Source: Ginglymostoma cirratum
Taxonomy: Eukaryota
Direction: 5' to 3'
Assembly: GCA_024137785.1 (NCBI GenBank)
Contig: JAHRHZ010000085.1
Location: forward strand, 15,420,772-15,484,771
DNA length: 64,000 nt
Shown: in pieces, positions 2,258 to 60,792 of the stretch
Position numbering within the stretch: position 1 is the first letter of the stretch
Layout of the letters: each line of letters opens with the position of its first letter
Program-made: the position numbers and the translations under genes
Notes under the pieces: model-generated
Seen by the model: the letters and a program-made list of their open reading frames with translations, nothing else
Database searches by the model: none
What the model was told of the DNA's origin: nothing

Positions 2258-4016
2258 AGATGTGGCCATGGGTACACACACTAGTTATGCCTGTCCTTTA
2301 CTGGGGTATGTGGAATACTCTTGGTTCCAGCCCTGAACCCATGCCCTCCCCCATCCCATTTTCTGTTTCTCCCTCGCCATCTCCCGTGTCAGCACTACTG
2401 CAATCTCTTCCCCTTTTCATCACCCGAAATCTCCGCACGTTAACAGGAAAGTAATTCAGTGGGAGTGGGATGGACATTGACCTGATTTACTCACATTTCA
2501 TGCAAGCTTGCGGATAGTGCCCAACTTGTCTCCAGTTGTCCATATCAGCCCTTGACTAGGGAGGAACTATTCCACCCTGGCTTATACTGCTGAAGGCCTT
2601 TCTGACAGAAGGTGTATGTAGTTAAGAGCAGGATTGAGTCTTCTTGTAATGCTGACCATTCCCTCTCCTCAGTGGCTAAGTAGTCTTACGCATGAAGATT
2701 CTGATGGACTCCAAAACCGTCAGGAGCCAGTCACTTTGAGTTGTTGTAGAAAATAGACGTGGATCAGAGAAAATAGTTCTAAGTCTGGCAGTGGGTGTGG
2801 AAGCAAACTGGTTGGGTTAAATGGCTTCCTTCCACGCTGTAACCATTCTGTCATTACCCAGTTCTCAGCTTGTTACATCTGCGTGGGCAGTGTATCAAGC
2901 AGTGAACAGGAAGTCAACGCCAATGCTGTTGTCTTCAGGTCCTGGCACTGTACTTAAATGGTATCCAAATGTTTCTACCAGCCCAGAGCATCAGTGGGGC
3001 TCTCAGAGTGGGCGTCTTCAGTTAAACATTCTGACCTTTCCTTGGTAAGCCAGATTACACCCTTGGCCAGCCTCCTTGACCCATGTCCATTACTGTCCCT
3101 TGATTATACTCCATGCCCTGTGCAACTTAGACTATGGCCACTCGATCTCAATCATGGCACACTATAGATGAAGGCTGCGCAATGAGGGCAAAGCAGCAGC
3201 TTTTCCAATATCTTCCCTGCTGCTGCAGGCATTTGATATAAAATCATGAATATGGCAAATCTCAATTGGGAAGGGAATCTTAATTTTGATGAGCTGGCCT
3301 TTTCAATGAGTTTGCATGACGTGCAAATGCATGCAAAATGTGTTTCCTGAAGCTTGCAATCAGGAAGCTTGACCTGCCTGTGAGGTTCCAAGAATTTCAT
3401 TATGAACCTTCTTCCTGTCTATTGGACCCTGATTTCTTTGGGCAATTGTTCCCTTAACGACCATCGCCCTGCTCCTGGGAGCAGCTGAAGATTGTACCCT
3501 GGGATTGGGAACCAAGGACACCAGGACAGGAAGGCTCACAACCCAGAACGTGGATTTGAAAGTACTCCCTATGCTAAAATTTGGCAAAGAGAGAACATTT
3601 GCTTGACCTAAGATTTTTAATAACAATTTGCAACTCTGAGCAGGAGATTTTCGTCTTCTTTGCGCACCTTTTAATAAAGATGACTTTGGAGGTAAAGGCA
3701 GGCAAGACATGTGTAGACCAGTTCAGTGATGACAAGTTTGGAACCAGCTTTTGAACTATATTCAATTATGTAATTATAAGTAGTTAACATGCAACATTAG
3801 CAGCATGTGGTATGATTTTCTGTAATTAGACAAAATGCATCCCATGTTCCAACTGTATTCTTTCATTAGTCTCTGGCTGGAATCAACCCTGAACTTAATT
3901 ATGAAGTGTTACCAATGTACTGAAGATCCTTCCAATACTAATTAAGATGATTTGATGTTTATTCAGCTTGCATTTATGTGGTCTTCCTAATTTGTAGGTT
4001 TATTTGTCAAATATGT

Positions 4017-4265
4017 CATAGAATCCCTACAGTGTGGAGGCAGGCCATTCGTCCCATCAAGTCCATACAGACCCTCTGAAGAGTATCCCACCCAGACCCA
4101 CCCCCCTATCATATCCCTATATCCCTGTATTTCCCATGGCTAATCCTCATTGCCTGCACATTCCTGGACACCATGGACAATTTTCCATGGCCAATCCACC
4201 CACCCTACATATCCCTGGACACTATGGGCAATTTAGCATAGCCATTCCACCTAACTTGCACATCT
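4017..4265 (-). mobile_element. HE1/V-SINE-like element, 3' part with internal tandem repetition
   Basis: Matches the 3' half of the full copies at 19889 and 47133 (catagaatccctacagtgtgga...ggccaatccacctaac). The unit atggccaatcc...cctggacac is repeated. Confidence 0.75.
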
Positions 4266-4699
4266 TGTCAAAAATTTGTCAAACATGAATAGGAAAAATG
4301 TAGAGGGATATGGTCCAAATGCAGGCATGTGGGACATGTTTAATTTGGGAAATTTGGTCGGCATTGACGAGGAGTCAGTTTCCTTGCTGTAGGACTCTGT
4401 GATTAAATAAGGAAGGAAGTGAGAGAAATGGAGAGGCTAGTTGAAAAGGAGAGCAGTAAGAATGGTTGGTTGTGGGGAGGGGTGTTTACAACTGCAGGGA
4501 GGAGGGGTGAGATGATGGGAGGAGTATTCCAGCGGCTATGCTCACTGAACAAACACACTGTTGTGTGGAGAAATTGAGGTCACAGCATAATGACTGGGAA
4601 TGAAAGCAAGTATGACAGGAGGAGACTATGAAGATAAAGATGGCCAAGGCAAGGGAGAGATTTGAAAATGTTGAGAGAGGTCCTGAAGACATTCCTGGA

Positions 4700-5330
4700 G
4701 GTTGGAGAACCCAGTGTAATGGGATTGTAGGACTTCTTATTTCAAAGGAAATGAAGTAGAAAGGTATGGAGGTCTTGCTAAAACTATAGTTTGACCACAG
4801 CTGGAATACAGTGAACAGTTCTAGTCCCCTTATCTAAAGAAAGATATACTGGCATTGGAGGCAGTCTAGAGAAGGTTCACTAGGTTGGTTCTGGGTATGA
4901 ACGGATTGTCTTATGAAGACGTTGAGTGAGTTGGCCTGTACCCATCGTAGTTTGGATGAATGTGAGGAGACCTTATTGAATCATACAAGATTCACAGGGG
5001 GCTTGACAGGATGGATGTGGAGAGGTTGTTTCCTCTCATGGGAGCGTCTAGGACCACACCGCATCATCACAGAATAAGGGGTCACCCATTTAAGACAGAG
5101 GTGAGGAACTTCTCTTAGAGGGTAGTGAATCTGGAGTTCTTTCCTGCAGACAGCTATTGGGTCATTAAGAATAACCAAGTCTCAGATAGGCAGGTTGTTC
5201 TTCAGTAAGGGAGTCAAGGGTTATGGAGAAAAGATAAAATGTTCCAGATTATCAGATCAGTTGTGATATAATTGAATCATGGAAAAAAACTTGATGGTCC
5301 ACTTCTGCTTCTATGTCTGATGGTCTTAAA
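4700..5330 (+). mobile_element. CR1-type LINE 3' fragment (degenerate RT C-terminus and tail)
   Basis: Decayed LEY..QFWSPYL.KDILALEAV.RRFT-like coding, followed by a typical CR1 3' region shared with other copies in the window. Confidence 0.75.
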
Positions 5331-6991
5331 GAGCCGGTCAAAAATGTGATTATAAAACTTTCAATCTGTCACTTAAATGTGTAAGGGTCTGAAAACATTA
5401 ATATTAAGGAGTGCCTTAAGCTCCATCCAATATGATAATATCTGGTTTTGTAGAAAGAACAGTTTCGAATCTTGAGTGATAAAGATCTACCATCTGGGCC
5501 TGCCACATCTCTGTGACAATGCCTATCACATCAGGATACCTCGTATAAAGCTGCTAGCATGCAATAGACTACATCTTGCTTAAATCAACAGTCTCTTCCT
5601 GTTAGGCTATTCAGTGGTTTTTGTCTACTACATCAGACTAATCAGGCCCCACCGATCCTGACCCCGGAAGAGGATGGTGGCACAAATGTGCAATGAAGAA
5701 CAGAGCTCAGACATCACAATGAACAGTGGTAGAGATTGTTCATGCAACAGGCTCAGCCTAGAGTTTGGAGAGAGACACATAGCAGCACACTGGAGAATTT
5801 AGTCCTTGAAATGATGATGGCATAGCAGGATATTAAAGGGGAGAGTTGTGTGGGGCGAGGGATATTCTTATAGAGGGTACAATCTGCTTTAGTCTCAGGA
5901 TGTGGAGGCTAAACAAACTTTGGGATTAAGGAGAATTCCAATATTACAAAGTTCCTGATTGAGGCTGGGGTAGCAGCCAGGGAAGTTGGAATCCAGATTC
6001 TCTGGGAATCTTTTCTGATAACTACTTGACACTTCGGCTAAGCACAAATAACTTGCAAGAGTTGGAGCTTTTCTAACAAGCTTTTTTTCCCCAGTACCTT
6101 CAGTGGAGCAGGAGAGAATGCACATAACAGATCACAATGTATTGCTACTATCAAAATGTTTCAGCTGTTTTCCATCTTCTGAGTACTCAGGTGGATTCTC
6201 TAAACCTTTTCAGTAATGTGGCTGCTGATACCAGGTGCTATTCCTGACAAGGCTGATATTGGGCGACCGGAAGGTGCAAGGATAATGCAGTTAAACATGA
6301 TTGCATCACTCTCACTTTCTTCTGCTGTTTTCCATTCTCTCTATTTCACCCTTCCACGTCTTTCACACACCCCCCTTTTTCACTGTCTTTCTGTCACAAC
6401 TCCTTTTATCTCATTTCTTTCAATATTGATGGCATTCCGTGCAGGCACATCCAAGTTGCAGTCCTTGTAACATACCAGGAAATAGAAACACAATCTGGGC
6501 ACTTCAAACTAAGAGGCCGTCATTCCCTTTACGGTAGTTAATTGTGTAAGTTCAGTAAGTGGCCAGGGATGGGAAGATGTGACTGAGTCAGGTAAATAAT
6601 AGGATCCAGGAATTCATTGGTGGAGCTTCAACCTTGTTTAACAACTTTGAGATACTTGCAAGTAGTGTGGATGAGAACTGATGGTGAAGGACAAAAATGG
6701 AACCTGGTAGCAACAGGAGAGTAACGATATTCAACCCAACCCTTATCAGGTGTTTCTAGTGCTGGGATTAAAAAATCTCTTTTGTGTCTGGAAAAGAGTA
6801 AACAATGTGACTCGTTGGATCCATTTGTATCCTGGTTCATGTCAGAATGAACAACATAGGTAGAATGAGGAATAGTGTTGTGATGAATGAATCTGAGGGC
6901 CACAGATCAAAATTGCTAAACAGAACCTGAAAACTAATAATCTCCAGATTATTACCTAATCCATGTGGTAAATGGACATGAGGGAAACACA

Positions 6992-7088
6992 TCACAGAAG
7001 AGCCCTGGCTGGAAACATCAACTTTCCTGCTCCTTTGATGCTGCCTGACCTGCTGTGTTCCTCCAGCTCCACACTGTGTTGTCACAGA
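6992..7088 (+). mobile_element. Truncated short Penelope-derived (hammerhead-family) element
   Basis: gaaacatcaactttcctgctcc...gatgctgcctgacctgctgtg body is shared with the 29233, 29975 and 60638 copies. tcacaga occurs on both sides. Confidence 0.6.
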
Positions 7089-7421
7089 GCTCGACCTGTC
7101 ACTTATGGAGTTCTGTGGGAGACTGGGGTTTCAATTCGTGGAGCACTGGCACCAATACGAGAGAGAGAGAGAACTGTTTGCTTGGGATGGGCTTGACTTA
7201 ACATAGATAACGACCAGTGTCCTGGTAAATGAAATAGTTATGGTATGACTCAAGAGAGAGCTTTAAATTAAAAATAGGTTGGCTGTTTCAGGAGAAGCAG
7301 GGAGGTCAGGTGAGGGGAAATTTCTTAATCTTGGAAGGTAAGTCAAGGCGCAGTGCTGTGTCACTGTGTGGATAGAATGTGATAACAAGGAACACAGTTT
7401 CTTTTGAAATCTAATGCATTC

Positions 7422-7684
7422 GGGGGAGGCAATAGCATCGTGGTATTATCACAGGGCTGTTTAATCCAGAGACCCAGATAATGTTCTGGGGACCCAGGTT
7501 TGAATCCCGCCACAGCAGATGGTGAAATTTGAATTCAATGAAAATCTGGAATTGAGAATCTAATGATGACCGTGAATCCATTGTTGATTGTTGGGGAAAA
7601 AAACCCATCTGATTCACTAATGTCCTTTAGGGAAGGAAACTGCCATCCTTACCTGGTCTGGCCTACATGTAACTCTAGACCCAG
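7422..7684 (+). mobile_element. tRNA-derived SINE with MER131/MetaSINE-like central domain (3'-truncated)
   Basis: A/B-box-like head (tggtattatcac...ggtttgaatccc) and core ttcactaatgtcctttagggaaggaaactgccatccttacctggtctggcctacatg. Near-identical to 46494 and 52366. Family name is from memory. Confidence 0.7.
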
Positions 7685-7929
7685 ATGAGGAAGAATGACT
7701 TGAGGATAATAGTGAGGAAGGAGATCTTTATTTTGATGATCAATAGTAGAAAGTATGGGTGAAGATGGAAAATACTGATGGGAATAGTTCATAGTCCTTT
7801 AACAGTTGTTATACCAATAGATGATAATTAATCAAGAAATGAGAGGAGCTTGTTACAAAGGCGATGCAATAATATTGAGACACAAATCTTCAGATGGATG
7901 GGACACATCAAATTGGAGACTGTAGTTTG

Positions 7930-8073
7930 TTCTGAGTTCTGAGGAAGGGTCACCGGACCCGAAACGTTAACTCTGTTTTCTCCTCCACAGATGCTGCCAG
8001 ACCTGCTGAGCTTTTCCAGCAACTTTGTTTTTGTTCCTGATTTACAGCATCCGCAGTTCTTTTGGTTTTTATT
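7930..8073 (+). mobile_element. Short non-autonomous Penelope-like/retrozyme-like element with 11-bp TSD
   Basis: Flanked by actgtagtttg at 7919-7929 and 8074-8084. Begins with a hammerhead motif. Body is shared with the 18592, 32422 and 9060 copies. Confidence 0.8.
7934..7973 (+). ncRNA. Minimal type I hammerhead ribozyme motif (predicted cleavage after GUU, nt 7968)
   Basis: Stem I GAGTT(7934-38)/AACTC(7969-73); core CTGAGGA(7939-45); extra A; stem II GGGTC-accg-GACCC(7947-60); GAAA(7961-64); palindromic ACGT in place of a looped stem III. Confidence 0.65.
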
Positions 8074-9059
8074 ACTGTAGTTTGGAGGATGTGTTCATGG
8101 GAAGAATTAAAGAACAACGCGCTTCTTAGAACAATGCATGTGCAATTGCAAAGGAGAAGAATGATCATAATTTGATAGAATTGTTCATTAAGTTGAAGAG
8201 AAGCATACCTAATTAAACCTAAAGGTCTGTAGCCTAATTGTTACATTGGTATGAGGGGTGAGTTATGTAAGGCATGCTTTATTCCAGTTACAGGCTAACA
8301 TGCTGTTAACGATAGTTGGCAAGATGTGTCTATCTCTGGGCTGTGGCTATCTACACATACATCCTTAGAGGCCGTTGGTTTATCTTAGAACAAGACTCTT
8401 TGCTGCACCATCTCTTTCATGTCTTCGCTACATTTAACATGCTTTATTTTCATCCATGCATTACAGCCTGCTGAATGCAGTTCTCGAGCATAATGTCTAG
8501 AACCTCTCTCTTCATATGATTATTCTTATCTCTCTTCTATGATTTCTTCTTCTGATCTATTTATTGGATATCAGAGTAACACGATCATTATTTGTATATT
8601 TCATTATACTGCAAGTTTGCATTTAATCAGATTTCCTGAACTATGAGAGTAGAAAAACAATGGCAAACATTTTTTTAAAAAATATCATCTCTTCAACAAA
8701 TATATATTCCATTGAGACATAAGAAATTCATGGAAAAGGTGATCCTTCTGAGCCTCACTAAAAATAATGATTATATTAAATTAAGAAGTTTATAAAGTTG
8801 TCAAGAGGAATAAGATGCCTAAAGTTTAAGTGATTTTTTTTCTTTATAAATCAGCAAAATTTGACTGAAGACAGATAGTGGATAAAATCAGATTAGAAAA
8901 CTAACTAACAAGAACATAGGAACCAGGAAAGGAAGCATTCAGGGCCTTTTTACCTACCGTGCCATTCAATAAGATCATGTCTAATATGTGTATGTTTTGG
9001 CTTTCACCTTCCCGTAGCTTTTGACCCCATTTCCTAACAAGAGTGTATCTAATACGCAT

Positions 9060-9200
9060 AATAAAAACGAAAATTCTACAGACGCTGGAAATCTGAATTT
9101 AAAACAGAAATTACCTGGAGAAACTCGGCAGCCTAGCAGCATCTGTGGAGAGCACAATAGTGATAACATTTCAAGATTAGTAGGACTCTTCAAATCTGAA
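9060..9200 (-). mobile_element. Degenerate copy of the short Penelope-derived element
   Basis: gacgctggaaatctgaa...ctggagaaactcggcagcctagcagcatctgtggag is the reverse complement of the 7930 family body. Confidence 0.6.
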
Positions 9201-18355: not shown

Positions 18356-18591
18356 TTGATTGGATTCTATATACTGTTATAACCTTCAGTGCTACATTAA
18401 AAGTACCAAATATACCAAATATATTCTTGATATACTAAATGAATGAACTAACCTGCAGCTCAAATGATCGTTTCTTATGAAATTCAAAATATACATGTAA
18501 TCTTCCTTGATTTGACTAGTGATGAGTTATTAAGTTAGGTTCAAATAAATTTTATGTCTATTGCTTACAAATGAAACAATCTAGTTTAAAT

Positions 18592-18758
18592 AAAAAGAGA
18601 AATTCCTGGAAAAGCTCAGCAGGTTTGAGGAAGGGTCACTCGACCTGAAACATTAACTCTGATTTCTATCCACAAATGCTGCCAGACCTGCTGAGCTTTT
18701 CCAGCCATTCCTGTTTTTATTTTTGGCTTACAGCATCCACAATTGTTTCCGTTTTTAG
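18592..18758 (+). mobile_element. Short Penelope-derived element with inverted 5' segment and decayed hammerhead
   Basis: ctggaaaagctcagcaggt (~18606) is the reverse complement of acctgctgagcttttccag (~18686). ttgaggaagggtcactcgacctgaaacattaactc is a mutated 7934-type motif. Confidence 0.7.
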
Positions 18759-19888
18759 TCTATTCTAAATGTCTATTGTACAGATGCAGCGGCATGGATT
18801 TGATTAGAACTGTTCTTCTGGCCTGGTATCAAGGTACAGACGGAGACAGCTACAGTAAGGATTGCATAATTGTGCCATAATTAGTTCCAGTGTGCAGTGA
18901 GAAGTAAGAGAAATTATATTCATAGGTAAGCCAAGGATTTTCAACAACTTAAAATATACTCTCATATGTCTGACTCAGCATCTGCTGATTGACTTCTTGC
19001 TGTATAAAAGTTTGAGTGCAAAGAGATAGTACTATAATCCTTAGACAGTTAACTTGAAGTTGCTAATGGCAATTTCGCTGAACAAATATGCAGATTCGAT
19101 AGGAAACTCACAATTTGATGAATAGACTCTGTTAAATGTTTTGGTCCTGCAACTCCACTTAAATTTTCCGTCTTCCCACTAGCAAAGCTCCCAGGGAAAT
19201 GTCATAAAAGGTTAAAAATGGCAGATTACTTGGGAGTCCTATCAAAGTTATGAAGTTTTAGAGTCCTGAGGTCATTCGTTGCTAGTTCTGTGGATGACCA
19301 GAGAACATCAGAAATGTTCAGTACTGGGCGAAGAATTTACCACGCTGATATTTTTGATTTAATTGAAGAGAAATCAACTGAGATTTCTAACAAAGGCTTG
19401 GGCCTATCTTTTTCTCTTTGATTAAATGAAAATAACTAGATACAAATGCACAAATTAGGAGCAGAAGTCATAGCCATTCAGTTCCTCAGGCCCAACTCAT
19501 CTATTGATAAAATGGTAGCTGATCTGACTGGGCCCTCAATTGCACATTACGGCTTATGCCTGATTCTCTTTCATTCCTTGGTTGGTTAAGAATCTACTGA
19601 TCTACCTCCTCTTTAAAAATATTCAATGACAAGCATATTCAAAAACATGATCCTAACATACGTGCACAGCTTTTGGATAGATTGGAATAAAAGTAAATAT
19701 TGACTTAAATCAAGCTGTTTTGTGAATAAGTTTTTATGAGGAAAGGAAAGATTTCAAACATTTCAATGGCATTACTGATTGAAGTGAATAATGGGGGGAA
19801 ACTGGTGCCATGTTGTAACAAGAGCATATCAAAAGTCTACTTAGAGTCATACTATTTACAAAGAATCCCAGGCAAAATATGTACTGTA

Positions 19889-23790: not shown

Positions 23791-24176
23791 GTACTTGATT
23801 GCTATCATGCAACAAACTACATCCTGTTTCAGACAGGAAAGTGTCATTAGGACTCAACAGGGCTTTTCCTCTATCACAGTAAACATTAGAGGCTTAAACT
23901 CCATCGAGGGAAGAGGATGGTAGCAAAAAACTACCCCAATAACAATCTGCTGGTGGCTGGCATTGTAACACATGTAACAGCAAAGACAAGTCTAATCATA
24001 GGAGAAGCCATTAGATCTCCTTTGCCAGTAATGAGTTTCCATTAAATTTCAATGACAATGAAAATGGAGACATGAAACTTTGATCTTCCATTTGGATCCC
24101 CAAGGCTAAACTGTTATTGCCACTTGAACCCCCTAGCTGTTCACCCTTACTTTCTTCCTAATGATTATTTTACAAA

Positions 24177-24532
24177 GGGTGGCACAGTGGCTCAGTGGTT
24201 GGCACTGCTGCCTCACAGCACCAGGGACCGAGGTTTGATTCCACCCTCAGACAATTGTCTGTGTGGAGTTTGCACATTCTCCCCGCGTCTGCGTGGGTTT
24301 CCTCTGGGTGCTCCGGTTTCCTCCCACAGTCCAAAGATGTGGCGGTCAGGTGGATTGACCGTGCTAAATCGCTCAAAGTGTCCAGGGATATGCAGGCTAG
24401 GTAGGTTACCCATGAAAAATGCAGGGTTACAGGGATAGGTTAAGGATTGGATCTGGGTAGGACACCCTTCAGAGGGTTGGCATGGACTCAATGGGCTAAA
24501 TGGCCTGTTTCTGCACTTTAGGGATGCTATGA
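24177..24532 (+). mobile_element. HE1/V-SINE-like tRNA-derived SINE, full length
   Basis: gggtggcacagtggctcagtggttggcactgctgcctcacagc head, V-domain-like core, tail tggcctgtttctgcactttagggatgctatga. Confidence 0.85.
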
Positions 24533-28880: not shown

Positions 28881-29232
28881 GAACTCCTCGTTCATTTATA
28901 AAATCCTGAATGTTCCTTTATCCTGAAAAGAGCATAGCTGCAGTATAACTGATGCCACATTGTATGTCATAGAAGATCCTTTACAAGCTCAGATTACTTG
29001 CAGAGGCTTTTCATGGGGCAAGCACGGAGAGTTTAGGCCTGTTGTACTCATGGGGCTCTGACCAATAAAATTACAAATAAACACTCCTCACATGTGGTGA
29101 TCAGTGACCTGTAACACCAGGATAACAACAGTCAAAGAAACAGAACTCTTTTACCGTAGCTGAGGCTGAATGAGTATACTGCGTATCTCTGGTTCTCATA
29201 GTCCACTAGTCACCACATTTATTTAAATGTTT

Positions 29233-29466
29233 GATAACAAAGTGGAGAGCTGGATGAACACAGCACGCCAAGCAGTATCAGAGGAGCAGGAAAGCTAATG
29301 TTTCGCGTCTGGACCCTTCTTCAGAAATGGGCTGAATTTCTGAAGAAGGGTCCAAACCCGAAACGACAGCTTTCCTGCTCTTCTGATGCTGCTTGGCCTG
29401 CTGTGTTCATCCAGCTCTACACCTTGTTATCTCAAATTCTCTAGCATCAGCAGTTCCTACTATTTC
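29233..29466. mobile_element. Palindromic (head-to-head) short Penelope-derived element with two hammerhead-like cores and a 14-bp TSD
   Basis: TSD tatttaaatgtttg at 29220-29233 and 29467-29480. ~95-bp inverted arms meet at ...cccttcttcagaaat-gggctga-atttctgaagaaggg.... Confidence 0.8.
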
Positions 29467-29974: not shown

Positions 29975-30181
29975 ATACAGTGTGGAACTGGAGGAGCACA
30001 GCAGGTCAGGCAGCATCAGAGGAGCAGGAAAGCCAATGTTTCAGGTTTACACCATTCATCAGGATATAAACCCAAAAGGTCGACTTTTCTGCTCCTTTGA
30101 TGCTGCCTGACCTGCTGTGCTCCTTCAGCCCACACTGTATTGACTCTGACTCCAGCATCTGCAGTTCTTGCTATCTCCGAA
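29975..30181. mobile_element. Palindromic short Penelope-derived element with 11-bp TSD
   Basis: TSD ggtttcagtta at 29964-29974 and 30182-30192. Arms gcacagcaggtcaggcagcatca / tgatgctgcctgacctgctgtgc are inverted. Confidence 0.8.
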
Positions 30182-31933: not shown

Positions 31934-32421
31934 CTAAAACAGAGGTAAAATAGCAGTTACATTCCAAGGCTGATGGAAAAATGAGCCCTTTTTGTCTGCC
32001 GAGAATATTCTCTATTCAACCACCGGTGGCTTTAGTGTTGGGGCCCCCGAGCTGTTTGGCTGGAGTTGACTGCTCCCTACAAAATGCATTTTCTGTGGGT
32101 GGTGGATGGGTTTGGTGATGGTTAGCCCCCTGTGGCTAGTTAACCATGGCCAGGCTTGAACTGCTCTACATAATAAAAGGTGTTAGGTAAGGTGCCCACT
32201 TGCCCACATGGTACAAGGTTTAATGAGGCTTTTAAGTGGCCAGTTTCTGCCCTCTTACAGTCCTTGGTCTGCCCTCACTACCATCACATGCTGGGCAGCA
32301 GAGGACAGGCAGAAGTGGAAAGGCTTGCTTTACATCTGTGTTAGTGGAAAGATGGGAGGCCTGGCTAGGACACGTTTTAGAGGATGCCTTGTGTTTGCTT
32401 TGGGAAAAAGTCCTTTGATCA

Positions 32422-32521
32422 GAAACAAAAACAGAAATTGCTGGAGAAACTCAGCAGGTCTGGCACCCATGTGGACAAAAAGCAGAGTTGATGTTTCGGG
32501 TCCAGTGACCCTTCTTCAGAA
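32422..32521 (-). mobile_element. Short Penelope-derived element with hammerhead-like motif
   Basis: Reverse complement reads gtt-ctgaaga-a-gggtc-actg-gaccc-gaaa-catc-aactc (the CG of the palindrome has decayed to CA). Confidence 0.7.
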
Positions 32522-33947
32522 CAAGCCCCTTCAAGCCTATCCCTGTCTTATGCCTCATTGCCCAGTATCAGAGGCCTGCTCCCTCACAATCCCTACTTCC
32601 ATGGGGTGCCCGATTCCTTCCCAGACAAAAAGGCTCAACACCTACCTATCCCTGGCATCTATGGTACCTCTTTACAGGGTAGCCCACAGTCCCAGCAACA
32701 GCCTCTAAAGGGTCTAGTGTTGCTGGGTCTACAAAAACTCTTCAGGTTGTACCATCCTTGTACTGAGGGGTGGGGGCAGTGGGGTCGATGTCCCACTCTC
32801 AGCTTGTTAAGGCTGTCCCTGGCATTTTATCATTTTGAGGCAGCCTTTTTTAAAGTCAGTTAGTGTCGACCAACATTTCTCCTTAGGAGGGACAAATAGC
32901 TCCACATGCCCCTGTTAAAAACAGCTTCTGGAATTCTTTCCTGAGAATTTCCCGTCCCTAATTCACTCTTCCCCCTACAAGATGCTTGTCTAAAGATACT
33001 TACTTGACAAAAACCTATCTTTACCTTCCGCCTTTTCGGCTTGGCATCAATATTTGATTGACTACACTCTTAGGGTGACCTCATGAGCTTTACTGCATTA
33101 GAAGTGCTACACAAGAACGAGAGGTCAACCATTACGACTGACGGTTTATTCACTCAAAGAGTTGTCAATCTTTGGAATTCTCCACTCAAAAACCTGAAGA
33201 TGCGCATGATTAAGCATATTTGTAACAGCACACAGAAAACAGCATGTGCAGGCTATTCAGGCCATTGAATCCACTCGGCATTCAATAAGATCATGACTGA
33301 TCTTTTATTTTGGAAAAGACAGCATTCATTTAGGGTGAGAGATTTCCAGGTACCAAGGGAATTAGGGTATAAGCTAGAAGCTCATCCATGATCTTATTGA
33401 GCAGTGGAGCAGGCTCGAAGGCTGTCGTGGCCCCCTCCAACTTCTATTTCATATGGTCTTACATAAATGCAAGTTGTTGTTGTATGATGAGAAATCTGTT
33501 CGTATATCGTACGTGGATCACAGGGAGGTCTGAGCTGGAAATCACTCTACAACAGCTGACAGGAGTTGTACTTGTTTTGGGGAGACATGTTTATCTACCT
33601 TCGAGCTCAGTGTACAATTTGATCTGAAGCATCAGTGTGGAAACTATAGTAACTGGTGACAGGATCATCTGCTAACACAGGGTTGTGAGGCTGCAACCGA
33701 CTTCTTTGGTTCTGATTTGCTTCTGGGTTTCTCACAGATTACATTGCACAGAAACAGGCAATTCAGCCCACTCATCCATGCTAGCATGATCATTCTACAC
33801 ATGAGCATCCTCTGACTCTATTTGTCTATGATCCTCAGTGCTGTGGAACACCTTAAGACATTTTTTTCTCCACTGTGTACTCTATCGATGCAGGTTGTTA
33901 GAAGAGATGTTTTAATTCTTTGATACTTTAGTTAATTCGTACTTTAC

Positions 33948-40244: not shown

Positions 40245-41689
40245 CTGGACAGACAAAAACAAAGGTGATAGGAATGCAAGTATCGGAGTATCAGGTTAGT
40301 CACAGACTGGGCACGGACTCCACCTCAGTTTGGTAAACTGTGCTGGCTCACATTTGGACTGCGATATAGAAGCTGGGCTGCCCCAAAGAAGGGGAATCCC
40401 ACTGATTGTCCATTTGATTTTGAGTTTTCCTGCTTATCTCTCAACAATAAAATGGTGGCTTTGGAGAATTCAATGAGCCAGGCCTAGCTCTTTTGAAGAA
40501 CAAACTGATTCTTCCTCCTCAGCCCCACCCTTCCTTCTCAAATTCTTTCATATAACGTTGATTGCTGTCTTACAGTCCATTTGAAGATGTTCTTGATCAT
40601 GCTGAGTTGCACCACCAATAAAATCATTACCATAGTTACTCACGTAGTAGAGTTCAGATTGCTCCTGTCATTCCTTATGAAACCATTCTACTGAGATGTT
40701 TCCCAGATGATATAATCTTTGGATAAATAGCACAAGTTTCAGAGTCTTTCAAATCAAAAGGTTAGTCAAAGAGTCAGAAAAAGATGCTGGTCGCCATCAA
40801 GGAACCATTTCTAAAATAAATGACCTATGCAGCTCATTTGGAAAACAAAACACATTGCTTTTCCTGTCCCTGTGCAATGATATGGTTCCTTTCTACACAG
40901 TGCTTCATTTCCCCAACCTGACTGAGAACAGATAGAACAACCCAGAGTAGAGCTGACTGAATTTGTCTAACAGGCTGCAACTATTTCCTTCTAGTATGTT
41001 CATAAATCATTAAAAGAGAAATTCAGCTTTTCTATGAAAACTAGATCAATCCCAAAACTTGTCAAGACCACCTTGTAAAAGTGAAGTTAGAGGATAATTG
41101 TCTGTGTGTCTATTAAAATATGCAATGATACCAAATGACTGCATTTTAATTTCATATCGGTACTGGGGAAGGTGGATTGGACTTATTTGAAATTTGTTAT
41201 TACTGAAAAAAAGAGACAGACTAACAAAGCTCTTTTATCCTGCCAAACAATCAGTACCCTGCTTCCCATACATGCTTTGTAATTGGTTGTTCCCTGTGAA
41301 ATTTGGTATTCCAGCATCTTTCCTGATGTGATGACTTCAAGATGAAAACCTTTAGCAGTAAGTTTGTTTTATTTTCAGCAATACTCAAGTTCTGTCCTTT
41401 CGGGTGAAAGTGGTTATTCTGAACCTCCCCAATATACAGTCAATTTAAGATGCATCAATAGCATTCTTCTTAAGATCTTACAGTGAATCAGGTAGATCTT
41501 CACCTCGTGTGACACCATAAAACAGACGATAGTGAGTGAAGGCCTGTTTTCAAGTAAAGTCATAGATGGCATGGAAAAAGACCCTTCAGTCCAACTCGTC
41601 CATGCTGACCAAGTTTCCCAAACTAAACTAGTCCGACTTGCCTGCATTTGGCTCATATCAAACTTTGTCCCCTGAAGTAAACTGTCCCT

Positions 41690-42180
41690 CTCACTTAGCA
41701 GAGCCTTGTGTCCGGTGTTGGCATTCCTGATGCCCCCCTGCTCCTGGTCTGGAAAGATCAGGTTAAACCTGGTGCGGAGTGTTCTCCCAATAAGCAACTT
41801 TGCTGGAGCTATCCCTGTAGTTGCATGAGGTATCCCTGTAGTTGCACTATAATCAAGCAAGAACCAGGATAGCTTGATATCTAGTGAAGCTGTAGGCTGT
41901 TTCTTTAAGCCTGCCTTCAAAGTTTGGGCTGGTCTTTCTGCCAGACCATTGGACGATGGATGGTATGGAGCTGACCTTATGTGTCAAATACCATTCAACT
42001 TTCAAATTGCCTGCTGGTAAATGATGGCCCGTTATCTGTGAACTACACTTCCAGGAGTCCATGTATTGCAAAAGATGCACATAGTTTTTTCTATTGTTGT
42101 CACCATGTTCTTCCAATTTTTTGTCCTGTTGATTTAAGTTGAAGCATGGGTAATGTGGATCTCATTATCCTGTCTACCAT
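41690..42180 (-). mobile_element. Gypsy integrase C-terminal remnant
   Basis: FLLDY...PHATTGIAPAKLLIGRTLRTRFNL, with frameshifted PYHPSSNGLAER upstream. Confidence 0.8.
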
Positions 42181-44497: not shown

Positions 44498-44829
44498 CTA
44501 GAAATGAAATGCGAAATTAATCATTGTCTCTAGACTTAAAATGTTGTGATTGCTATAATTAGCTATTAGCTGAGTACTAAGGAAGTCTCAAATGTGAAAC
44601 TCTCCAGGAGTTGCCATAAAGGATTTTTCTGTAAAAAAGTCCTATCTGATCTGTTCATAGTGTTCAGACAATGAACACTTATGCACCAGTGAAGTGGGTG
44701 AAATAGTACCAAACCGGATGAAATTGTCACATGATAAGGATGGATACGATAATGAAATGGTGATGTATGTCAACAATGACATCAGCAGTCACATGTAAGA
44801 GACAGGGAGGAAAAGATGGTTTAGTTTGC

Positions 44830-45330
44830 ATTAAAGAGAGAGAGGAGGGAGGAAGCAAACATGTAGGTGTTACACCTCCTACAATTTCAGGAGAAGGTGC
44901 GGTGGAGTGAGGGGTTGTGTTGGGAATGAAGGAGGAGTATATCAGGATGTCCCAGAGGGAACAGTCCCTGCAGAATGCTGACAAGAGGGAAGGGAAATGT
45001 GTGTTTGGTGGTGGCGTCCTGCTGGTGGTGGTGGAAATGGTGGCTAATGATCTTTTGGATGTGAATGCTGGTGGGATGGTGGTGATGTGGGAGAGAAGAG
45101 AGGGGGTGAGGACCGAAGTTGAACACAGCTGACGCCCTGTCAAACATGGTGGTGGAGAATCCTCAGCTGAGGAAGAAGGTGAATATTTCGGACAGCTCTT
45201 TGTAGAAGCCAGCATCATCAGAACAGATGTGATGGAGATAGGGTAACTGGGAGAATGGAATAGAGTCTTTAGAGGAACAAAGTATGAGAAAGTCCAGGTA
45301 ACTGTTGGGGACAGTGGGCTTGGAATGGCT
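44830..45330 (-). mobile_element. Penelope-like element RT/linker remnant
   Basis: KPTVPNSYLDF...KDSIPFSQLPYLHHICSDDAGF resembles the Penelope KPTDSHSYLDY...SIPFSQFLRLRRICS motif. Confidence 0.75.
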
Positions 45331-52728: not shown

Positions 52729-53620
52729 ATATAACAATGGTCATATCAGGAGCAAAATAATGAGGGCAAGCAAGTCTCCAATAATCCACAGTTACATTGC
52801 AGATATGATCTCAGTCTGGTTTCTGTAGTGTGCACCATTGCCAAGACAGGTGAAAGTTACACCATCAGGTCTTCCCTACTGTAGTTGGAAGTGAAAGTCA
52901 GAGACGGTGGGAGTACTGACCTTGTGTGCTTGGACACATTTGCAGAGATGTTTCCCCAAGACCCTAATTCTGAACAAAGGAGTGTGCAAGTGGAAGTATT
53001 TGCAAGATCACAAGATAATTGCAATGGGTAACATTGTATAAATTGGTTGGTAACCAAAAGAATTAATTATCATCTCAACATAAGCTCGACCCATCAGGAT
53101 ACAAAGGACCGTTTCTGAGAGGAACTCACTAGTTATCCATGAGTCCCAACCAGTTTCGAGGTTGGTGTTATAGAGTCATAGAGTTTTACTGCATAGAAAG
53201 ATGCCTTCAACACAATCATCAATCATCCACCTATTCTAATCCCATTTTCTAACACTTGGCCCTTAGCCTTGCATGCTATGGTATTTCAAGTGCTCATCTA
53301 AATAGATATAAAATGACTTGAGGGTTTCTGTCTCTACTGCCCTTTTAGGTAGTGAATTCCAGATACTCACTACTGTTTGATTGAAAGAAAAAATTCCTCA
53401 AATCCCCTCTGAACCTCCCTGTTTCTTACCTTAAAACTATGCCCCCTGTACTGAGGAGGAAGGTTTCTCCCTATCCACCCTTTTTATATCCATCGGAACT
53501 TTGTACACCTCAGTAAAAACTCCCCTCACCTTCTCCACTTGAAGGAAAACAACTCCAGGCTATTGACAGTCCCTTCATAGCTGAAACACTCCAGCCCAGG
53601 CAACATCCTGATAAATAAGG

Positions 53621-54284
53621 TGTAGAGCTGGATGAACACAGCAGGCCAAGCAGCATCGGAGGAGCAGGAAGGCTGATGTTTCGGGCCTAGACCCTTCTTC
53701 AGAAAATTTCTACAGCACTACACCTTGTTATCTCAGATTCTCCAGCATCTGCAGTTCCTNNNNNNNNNNNNNNNNNNNNNNNNNNNNNNNNNNNNNNNNN
53801 NNNNNNNNNNNNNNNNNNNNNNNNNNNNNNNNNNNNNNNNNNNNNNNNNNNNNNNNNNNNNNNNNNNNNNNNNNNNNNNNNNNNNNNNNNNNNNNNNNNN
53901 NNNNNNNNNNNNNNNNNNNNNNNNNNNNNNNNNNNNNNNNNNNNNNNNNNNNNNNNNNNNNNNNNNNNNNNNNNNNNNNNNNNNNNNNNNNNNNNNNNNN
54001 NNNNNNNNNNNNNNNNNNNNNNNNNNNNNNNNNNNNNNNNNNNNNNNNNNNNNNNNNNNNNNNNNNNNNNNNNNNNNNNNNNNNNNNNNNNNNNNNNNNN
54101 NNNNNNNNNNNNNNNNNNNNNNNNNNNNNNNNNNNNNNNNNNNNNNNNNNNNNNNNNNNTTCTGAAGAAGGGTCTAAGGCCCGAAACGTCAGCCTTCCTG
54201 CTCCTCCGATGCTGCTTGGCCTGCTGTGTTCATCCAGCTCTACACCGTGTTATCTCAGATTCTCTAGCATCTGCAATTCCTACT
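53621..54284. mobile_element. Composite/tandem hammerhead-bearing short element spanning the assembly gap
   Basis: Inverted copy (53621-53705), a 3' end, the gap, then a forward copy starting ttctgaagaagggtctaaggcccgaaacgtc (54160-54190). Flanked by atcctgat(a/g)aataagg at 53605-53620 and 54285-54300. Confidence 0.7.
53760..54159. other. Assembly gap (400 N)
   Basis: Run of N. Confidence 1.
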
Positions 54285-54296
54285 ATCCTGATGAAT

Positions 54297-60637: not shown

Positions 60638-60792
60638 CAGAAAGGCTGACTTTTCGGGCCTAGACCCTTCTTGAAGGATCTAGGCCCAAAATGTCAGCCT
60701 TCCTGCTCCTCTGATGCTGCTTGGCCTGCTGTATTCATCCAGCTCTACTCCTTGTTATCTCAGATTCTCCAGCATCTGCAGTTCCTACTATC
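60638..60792 (+). mobile_element. Short Penelope-derived element with inverted 5' end and perfect 15-bp TSD
   Basis: gctgcatctgtacag at 60623-60637 and 60793-60807. aggctgacttttcgggcctagacccttc / gaaggatctaggcccaaaatgtcagcct are inverted. Confidence 0.8.

Follow-up and report, generated by a model that had tools for sequence, protein, structure and literature searches.

The window, by which we mean the whole 64-kb stretch of shark DNA analysed here, contains the host gene ANO10 (anoctamin-10) on the minus strand at 31808-61107, where 12 coding exon matches are 87-100% identical to the whale shark protein. These matches support the shark origin stated earlier and point to a probable carpet shark related closely to the whale shark. 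An integrase-like fragment at 41414-41983 (minus strand) gives a weak rve_3 match (E 0.006) and is probably the remnant of an LTR retrotransposon in an ANO10 intron. The element that concerns us here, a short insertion carrying a hammerhead motif, lies approximately 24 kb beyond the ANO10 stop codon and on the other strand; no host exon was identified nearby. The plus strand also carries two SINEs of the tRNA type in which both A and B boxes are present (7424-7690 and approximately 24140-24440), the first of which ends approximately 240 bp upstream of the hammerhead element. The coordinates of the remaining features are collected in Table 1.

Table 1. Features of the hammerhead insertion and related sequences in the window.
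Feature	Position	Strand	Remarks
Second fragment of a Penelope-like element (PLE)	2.2-2.4 kb		Unjoined to any hammerhead copy
Target-site duplication, left copy, 11 bp	7919-7929	+	
Insertion, 144 bp	7930-8073	+	Family homology 7935/36-8073, after 5 copy-specific bases
Helix I, 5' arm, GAGTT	7934-7938	+	Read directly; 5 bp in this copy, with 4 bp probable for the family
Core C3-A9, CTGAGGA (CUGAGGA)	7939-7945	+	Read directly
Extra A between A9 and G10.1	7946	+	Read directly
Helix II, GGGTC-ACCG-GACCC	7947-7960	+	5 bp, 4-nt loop
GAAA (G12-A15.1)	7961-7964	+	
Palindromic CG (C15.2-G16.2)	7965-7966	+	Loopless helix III
TT (U16.1/U17)	7967-7968	+	GUU triplet; predicted cut after 7968
Helix I, 3' arm, AACTC	7969-7973	+	
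Box conserved in all three window families	7988-7996	+	Complementary to tail 8045-8053; 8/9 pairs here
Optional tail	8034-8073	+	Left edge ~8031-8041; on direct copies, missing from inverted partners
Target-site duplication, right copy, 11 bp	8074-8084	+	
Same family (A), decayed copy	9059-9191	-	72% identity
Same family (A)	18586-18761		83% identity; core broken; 5'-truncated inverted partner head to head
Family B (sister family), head-to-head pair	29234-29466		14-bp duplication
Family C (sister family), head-to-head pair	29975-30181		11-bp duplication
Same family (A), tail-less copy	32418-32523	-	84% identity; palindrome mutated; last ANO10 intron
Degraded Neptune-type PLE coding remnant	44791-45330	-	RT thumb to linker; unjoined to any hammerhead copy
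Family B copies around a 400-N gap	53574-54291		
Family B, head-to-head pair	60638-60792		15-bp duplication

Boundaries and age of the insertion

The earlier note had described a short repeat with a target-site duplication on either side, and an exact 11-bp direct repeat indeed encloses the 144 bp; by chance, a direct repeat of at least 11 bp is found in 0.57% of 2957 random zone pairs. When contigs are aligned to 7700-8300, the loose ends, among those listed, pile up at 7935/36 and 8073. The agreement among the loose letters is 0.34-0.36 at 7935/36 and 0.37-0.39 at the true 3' end, compared with 0.50-0.59 at internal clip points. Because the agreement at 7935/36 is as low as that at the 3' end, most copies share no sequence upstream of this position, and the family begins at the 5' arm of helix I (7935/36). 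It follows that the fifth pair of helix I, G7934-C7973, is probably specific to this copy. A eukaryote gene model (P0043, 85% identity), the single match among four candidates in an antisense-frame protein search, points to the same start. The sequence that follows in P0043 is unrelated and LINE-like, so that it provides no link to a PLE.

Contigs of organism C extend across the two junctions of the insertion for 32 and 34 letters and differ at 14 of approximately 260 letters each. The same insertion is therefore present in organism C at a divergence of approximately 5%, which indicates that it is old. Contigs of organism B cross the same junctions by 27 and 24 letters, short of the 31-letter threshold, and no empty target site is found among the alignments listed for the contigs of four public runs. 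At its 5' junction the insertion opens with a 7-bp tandem duplication (TTCTGAG twice, 7930-7943), possibly the trace of a template jump. The target duplications at 7919-7929 and 29220-29233 share the ending GTTTG; these sites are too few to speak of a target preference.

A minimal type I hammerhead motif

By direct reading, every part of the intact hammerhead of the minimal type I that had been claimed at 7934-7973 is found there. The published consensus of the minimal PLE hammerheads, with the core CUGANGA...GAAA-N-N-U-H, is matched by the motif. The extra nucleotide that the claim placed between A9 and G10.1 is the unpaired A7946, which stands ahead of the G10.1-C11.1 pair (G7947-C7960). Additionally, positions 15.2/16.2 are palindromic and have no loop 3 (CG 7965-7966), and the closing helix I is short (5 bp).

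With a strict descriptor (the core, helix II of at least 4 bp, the palindromic pair, UH and helix I of at least 4 bp), 7934-7973 is the sole match in the 64-kb window, and the number of matches is 0 in 300 simulated windows of 64 kb with matched dinucleotide composition. With the most relaxed descriptor, the window contains 4 matches against 0.08 expected. A scan with the Rfam covariance models at E up to 10 and 5 returned no hammerhead family at the motif or elsewhere in the window.

Related copies and abundance of the family

A profile found 16 segments in the window, among them the 6 copies from which it had been built; the 16 were sorted by eye into three related families, and 12 were aligned. 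The whole core and the palindrome are kept in 2 of the 12 aligned copies, namely the 7934 copy and the copy at 54160, and the 7934 copy alone combines a full core with a full helix I. The core is broken in the closest relatives on the same strand (7.0 and 18.6 kb), which leaves the 7934 copy without a nearby dimer partner.

The number of contigs placed on 7700-8300 is 10,570, 23,378, 117,000 and 125,534 in four public runs, nearly all of them on the element. The summed depth ratios, approximately 1e5 to 1e6, are not copy numbers, and the alignment to 7700-8300 favours copies that resemble the 7934 copy. The family is very abundant.

An assembly gap of 400 N at approximately 53760-54160 lies inside an inverted arrangement of family B, as expected where such repeats break assemblies. 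Rfam microRNA matches at 29976-30139, which are below the gathering scores, stem from the head-to-head pair of family C; RNA from such pairs would fold into long hairpins, and the pairs are a source of false microRNA calls. A conserved peptide starting from the ATG at 7991 was ruled out, as the reading frame of the tail motif differs between families. In family A only, the cut site is overlapped (7967-7993) by a branch-point-like TTAAC, followed by a pyrimidine tract and a CAG immediately in front of this ATG, which may, speculatively, represent a splice acceptor; in Drosophila Penelope, an intron end is located at helix I (PMC4209133).

Folding of the motif in isolation and in context

The minimum-energy structure of the isolated 40-mer consists of helix I and helix II, at -11.9 kcal/mol, and the folding z-score, taken by itself, is unremarkable (-0.86). 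Helix II is stable in every folded context, with a pair probability of 0.99-1.0. The pair probability of helix I is 0.68-0.99 and falls to 0.01-0.12 once at least 17 downstream bases are included (from 7990 onward); the hammerhead fold in context costs 0-2.9 kcal/mol. According to these models, helix I is favoured in isolation only and is out-competed in its sequence context, and the solitary copy at 7934-7973 would rarely fold helix I.

In the 12 aligned window copies, 78.7% of the helix cells are paired, a level reached in 4 of 500 shuffles, and the changes that affect both sides of a pair each come from one sequence. For helix I, the paired fraction is 61%. Covariation across these copies is thus thin and at most suggestive. 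A 9-bp pairing of the conserved box (7988-7996) with the tail is present in 85% of the cells and is kept across the three families.

Insertion anatomy typical of Penelope-like elements

Inverted partners are a recurrent feature of the family. The best 15 of 421 joints are all strand switches, and 14 of these 15 join 7932-7938 to 7983-8026, where the joints at 7983-7988 may reflect alignment clipping. Five head-to-head pairs are present in the window (18.6, 29.3, 30.06, 53.7 and 60.67 kb). The inverted 5'-truncated copy beside the 5' end is thus seen for the family, not for the 7934 copy itself. Inverted partners with duplications of their own end 36-41 bp before the direct copies, a difference that corresponds to the optional tail. 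Exact direct repeats of 10, 11, 11, 14 and 15 bp flank five of the eight units examined, the 10-bp repeat sitting approximately 22 bp outside its unit, and the other three have repeats of only 6-7 bp; a direct repeat of at least 10 bp arises by chance in 1.1% of random zone pairs.

Among the features that Craig et al. (2021, PMC8557442) describe for PLEs are inverted copies truncated at the 5' end and a tail of 30-40 bp on one side. Schostak et al. (2008, PMC2377424) likewise report a terminal repeat of 34-37 bp, target duplications flanking the copies and an internal promoter. The kinship with the minimal type I hammerheads of PLEs that had been proposed for the motif therefore holds, since the published consensus is matched and the insertions have PLE-type anatomy. 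The anatomy suggests that the hammerhead family belongs to the PLE terminus class, with no named PLE family assigned.

These observations also bear on whether the repeat could be a conventional Pol III SINE, or a repeat mobilised by a LINE, with a sequence that merely looks like a hammerhead. A SINE-like size, an A/T-rich 3' end and duplications of 10-15 bp would fit such an origin. However, the sense strand has neither an A box nor a B box and contains five runs of 4-5 T. The scan applied the Pol III A/B box patterns and the T-run terminator rule, and as a control both boxes were scored in the two neighbouring tRNA-type SINEs. Furthermore, no tRNA was found in the search, the hammerhead motif is far beyond chance, and a SINE accounts for neither the inverted head-to-head partners nor the optional tail. 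A SINE or LINE-mobilised origin is thus highly improbable, in line with the earlier statement that the repeat is not a Pol III SINE.

Coding remnants and the candidate autonomous partner

The remnant at 44.79-45.33 kb has 41 relatives in a full protein scan, including whale shark and stingray entries; a word-based protein search with the PLE remnant gave 0 matches among 24 candidates. Some of the relatives carry an RVT_1 match or a sub-threshold GIY-YIG match. We call the remnant Neptune-type from the cysteine-rich linker of its relatives, a sequence criterion taken from the accessible part of PMC8557442, and the possible assignment of the hammerhead family to Neptune comes from co-occurrence in the window. 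No copy of the family joined to a PLE coding region is present in the window, and pattern scans of metagenome and viral contigs gave 0 matches. We infer an autonomous PLE as the partner of the hammerhead family. Elsewhere, PLEs are reported to have expanded in whale shark introns (bioRxiv 10.1101/443036).

The metagenome relatives of the remnant comprise 14 loci with 24-42% identity. One of them, L013, on a non-shark metagenome contig, contains a head-to-head pair of minimal hammerheads at 1340-1480 that overlap at helix II. This pair resembles family B (E 6e-4) and lies 1.3 kb from a degraded PLE RT, a proximity that is not a demonstrated link.

An uncut or re-ligated RNA as the likely template

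The proposal that the repeat is processed by self-cleavage is not supported by the structure of the copies, which begin at helix I and retain the 33-34 bases that precede the cut site. Of the 16 profile matches, 13 begin at 2-21 of the model, in the stretch from helix I to helix II, and the other 3 at 73-85; none begins near the cut site (approximately 41). In four runs the depth just past the cut site amounts to 0.95, 0.74, 0.76 and 1.56 times that just ahead of it, the last value, a rise, being from run X17. The copy starts and the depth at the cut site indicate that the linear cleavage product is not the usual template. Since the copies begin at helix I and not at the cut site, the template RNA is likely uncut or re-ligated.

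Published work on related motifs provides a background for this result. A minimal motif had no activity as a monomer and low activity as a dimer (Cervera and de la Pena 2014, PMC4209133), and of 9 dimers from Xenopus, 1 was cleaved (Li, Clavereau and Pollet, bioRxiv 10.64898/2026.07.22.740005). For the PLE of the anole, Frangieh et al. (2024, PMC11167929) describe a hammerhead that needs the protein of the element to cut and is dispensable for insertion in vitro, uncut RNA as the main substrate, an absence of RNA reads that end at the cut site, and reverse transcription that starts internally at two sites, which sets the tail.

The decay of the motif was followed in the depth of the aligned contigs. 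G12 is mutated in 13-30% of the depth and the CpG of the helix II loop in 13-16%; taken together, G12 and the palindrome CpG positions (7961, 7965 and 7966) are mutated in 10-32%. G12 and the palindrome thus decay like other CpGs, which gives no sign of selection on the genomic copies at large. Preservation of the 7934 copy itself by selection, as a host RNA-processing element, would be in keeping with its being the only one of 12 copies with both a full core and a full helix I, with the retention of all three CpGs of the motif and with the sharing of the insertion with organism C at approximately 5% divergence. However, 68-90% of the depth is intact at each CpG site, so that an intact copy is expected often, and helix I is predicted to be out-competed in context. 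As the copy also lies far beyond the ANO10 stop codon, on the opposite strand and with no host exon identified nearby, such a host role is very unlikely. The 144-bp copy is likely inert now, and by itself it probably does not matter to the host.

Proposed mode of insertion

The insertion is quite probably a hammerhead-to-tail end-piece of a PLE, probably inserted by the reverse transcriptase-endonuclease of the PLE, which would nick the target in a staggered way and start reverse transcription internally on an RNA that was uncut at this ribozyme. In this proposal the anatomy is observed, and the enzymology is drawn by analogy from the anole element. The PLE protein would make staggered nicks 10-15 bp apart. 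Reverse transcription would begin inside the RNA, approximately 90-95 or approximately 127 bases past helix II, which would yield tail-less or tailed copies. Copying would then pass through the intact hammerhead and stop at the 5' edge of helix I, where either the RNA starts or the enzyme leaves its template. The second strand may often be primed separately, giving an inverted partial copy head to head. In the source element, cutting by the hammerhead would require a dimer or help from the PLE protein.

A retrozyme-type cycle, a refined form of the self-cleavage proposal, would be a different route to the same product: tandem masters of the 139-bp unit would cleave as dimers after 7968, the monomer RNA would be ligated into a circle, and a single pass of reverse transcription starting at the tail end would give copies of 7935-8073 in which the hammerhead is restored. 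The fixed 5' edge and the intact motif would also follow from a circle, and the palindromic helix III suits a dimer. Moreover, one chondrichthyan genome is reported to contain non-LTR retrozymes, elements that have monomer derivatives and descend from PLEs (bioRxiv 10.64898/2026.07.22.740005). However, the window copies include no head-to-tail pair, in a window that has the 400-N gap within it, no joint from 8073 to 7935 is found among the best 15 of 421 joints, and no overshoot of 3'-end sequence is present in front of the copy at 7930. In addition, retrozymes are described as tandem units with mostly canonical hammerheads (PMC7229834; bioRxiv 10.64898/2026.07.22.740005), and 8 of 9 Xenopus dimers remained uncleaved (bioRxiv 10.64898/2026.07.22.740005). 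We regard a retrozyme-type cycle as unlikely here and retain insertion of a PLE end-piece from uncut RNA.

A more tentative and rather doubtful extension is that the family may be a dedicated non-autonomous Penelope "SINE equivalent" of approximately 140 bp, with at least approximately 100,000 copies, whose RNA would start at the initiator-like A7935 and which would spread by internal initiation of reverse transcription on uncut RNA. If so, the hammerhead would serve as a retained promoter or protein-binding module and not as an enzyme that processes RNA, and no natural record of PLE insertion chemistry would be larger than that in shark genomes. That the copies have a fixed start at helix I, upstream of the cut site, in itself bears on what the hammerhead of PLEs is for, and the many copies with target duplications, tails and inverted junctions would make its role testable from genome data alone.

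Comparison with known systems

The hammerhead class is already published for PLEs, and the shark family is an additional member, which extends the association of PLEs with hammerheads to a very abundant carpet-shark repeat that might be mistaken for a SINE. A literature search found no description of this shark family in the sources within its reach, with Repbase, Dfam and subscription papers lying outside it. As far as the accessible part of PMC4209133 goes, the motif resembles the minimal hammerheads of metazoan PLEs in its CUGANGA core, the extra base before G10.1, the G10.1-C11.1 pair, the loopless palindrome, the NUH triplet and the short helix I. The motifs of that study are likewise mostly dispersed and single, and pairs on opposite strands 100-700 bp apart also occur among them. 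However, no shark is found in the part of its alignment covered here or among the supplement terms searched, the shark helix II of 5 bp with a tetraloop is at the short end, and the apparent abundance of the shark family is far higher than that of the coelacanth and Xenopus motifs (approximately 4,000-9,000).

Poseidon PAc of Anolis carolinensis, as presented in the accessible part of PMC11167929, has alternative 3' ends approximately 100-130 bases after the hammerhead that define an optional tail, as in the shark family, and its insertion from uncut RNA fits the shark anatomy. Unlike the shark copy, which is without a coding region, PAc is autonomous with an ORF from helix II; the remnants in the window are Neptune-type.

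Like the metazoan non-LTR retrozymes (PMC7229834; bioRxiv 10.64898/2026.07.22.740005), the shark elements are short and non-coding, carry a type I hammerhead and are probably PLE-derived; target duplications of more than 4 bp and the existence of monomer copies are further shared traits. Retrozymes are tandem and form circular RNA (PMC7229834), whereas the shark copies are solitary or head to head and have a minimal hammerhead at the very 5' edge. MRC1 of Chlamydomonas, a non-autonomous PLE (Craig et al. 2021, PMC8557442), shares with the shark family a non-coding sequence, a PLE 3' end and the insertion anatomy. In contrast to the shark family, such elements are members of the Chlamys clade, which is mostly without canonical hammerheads, and they are often arranged as head-to-tail multimers (PMC8557442).
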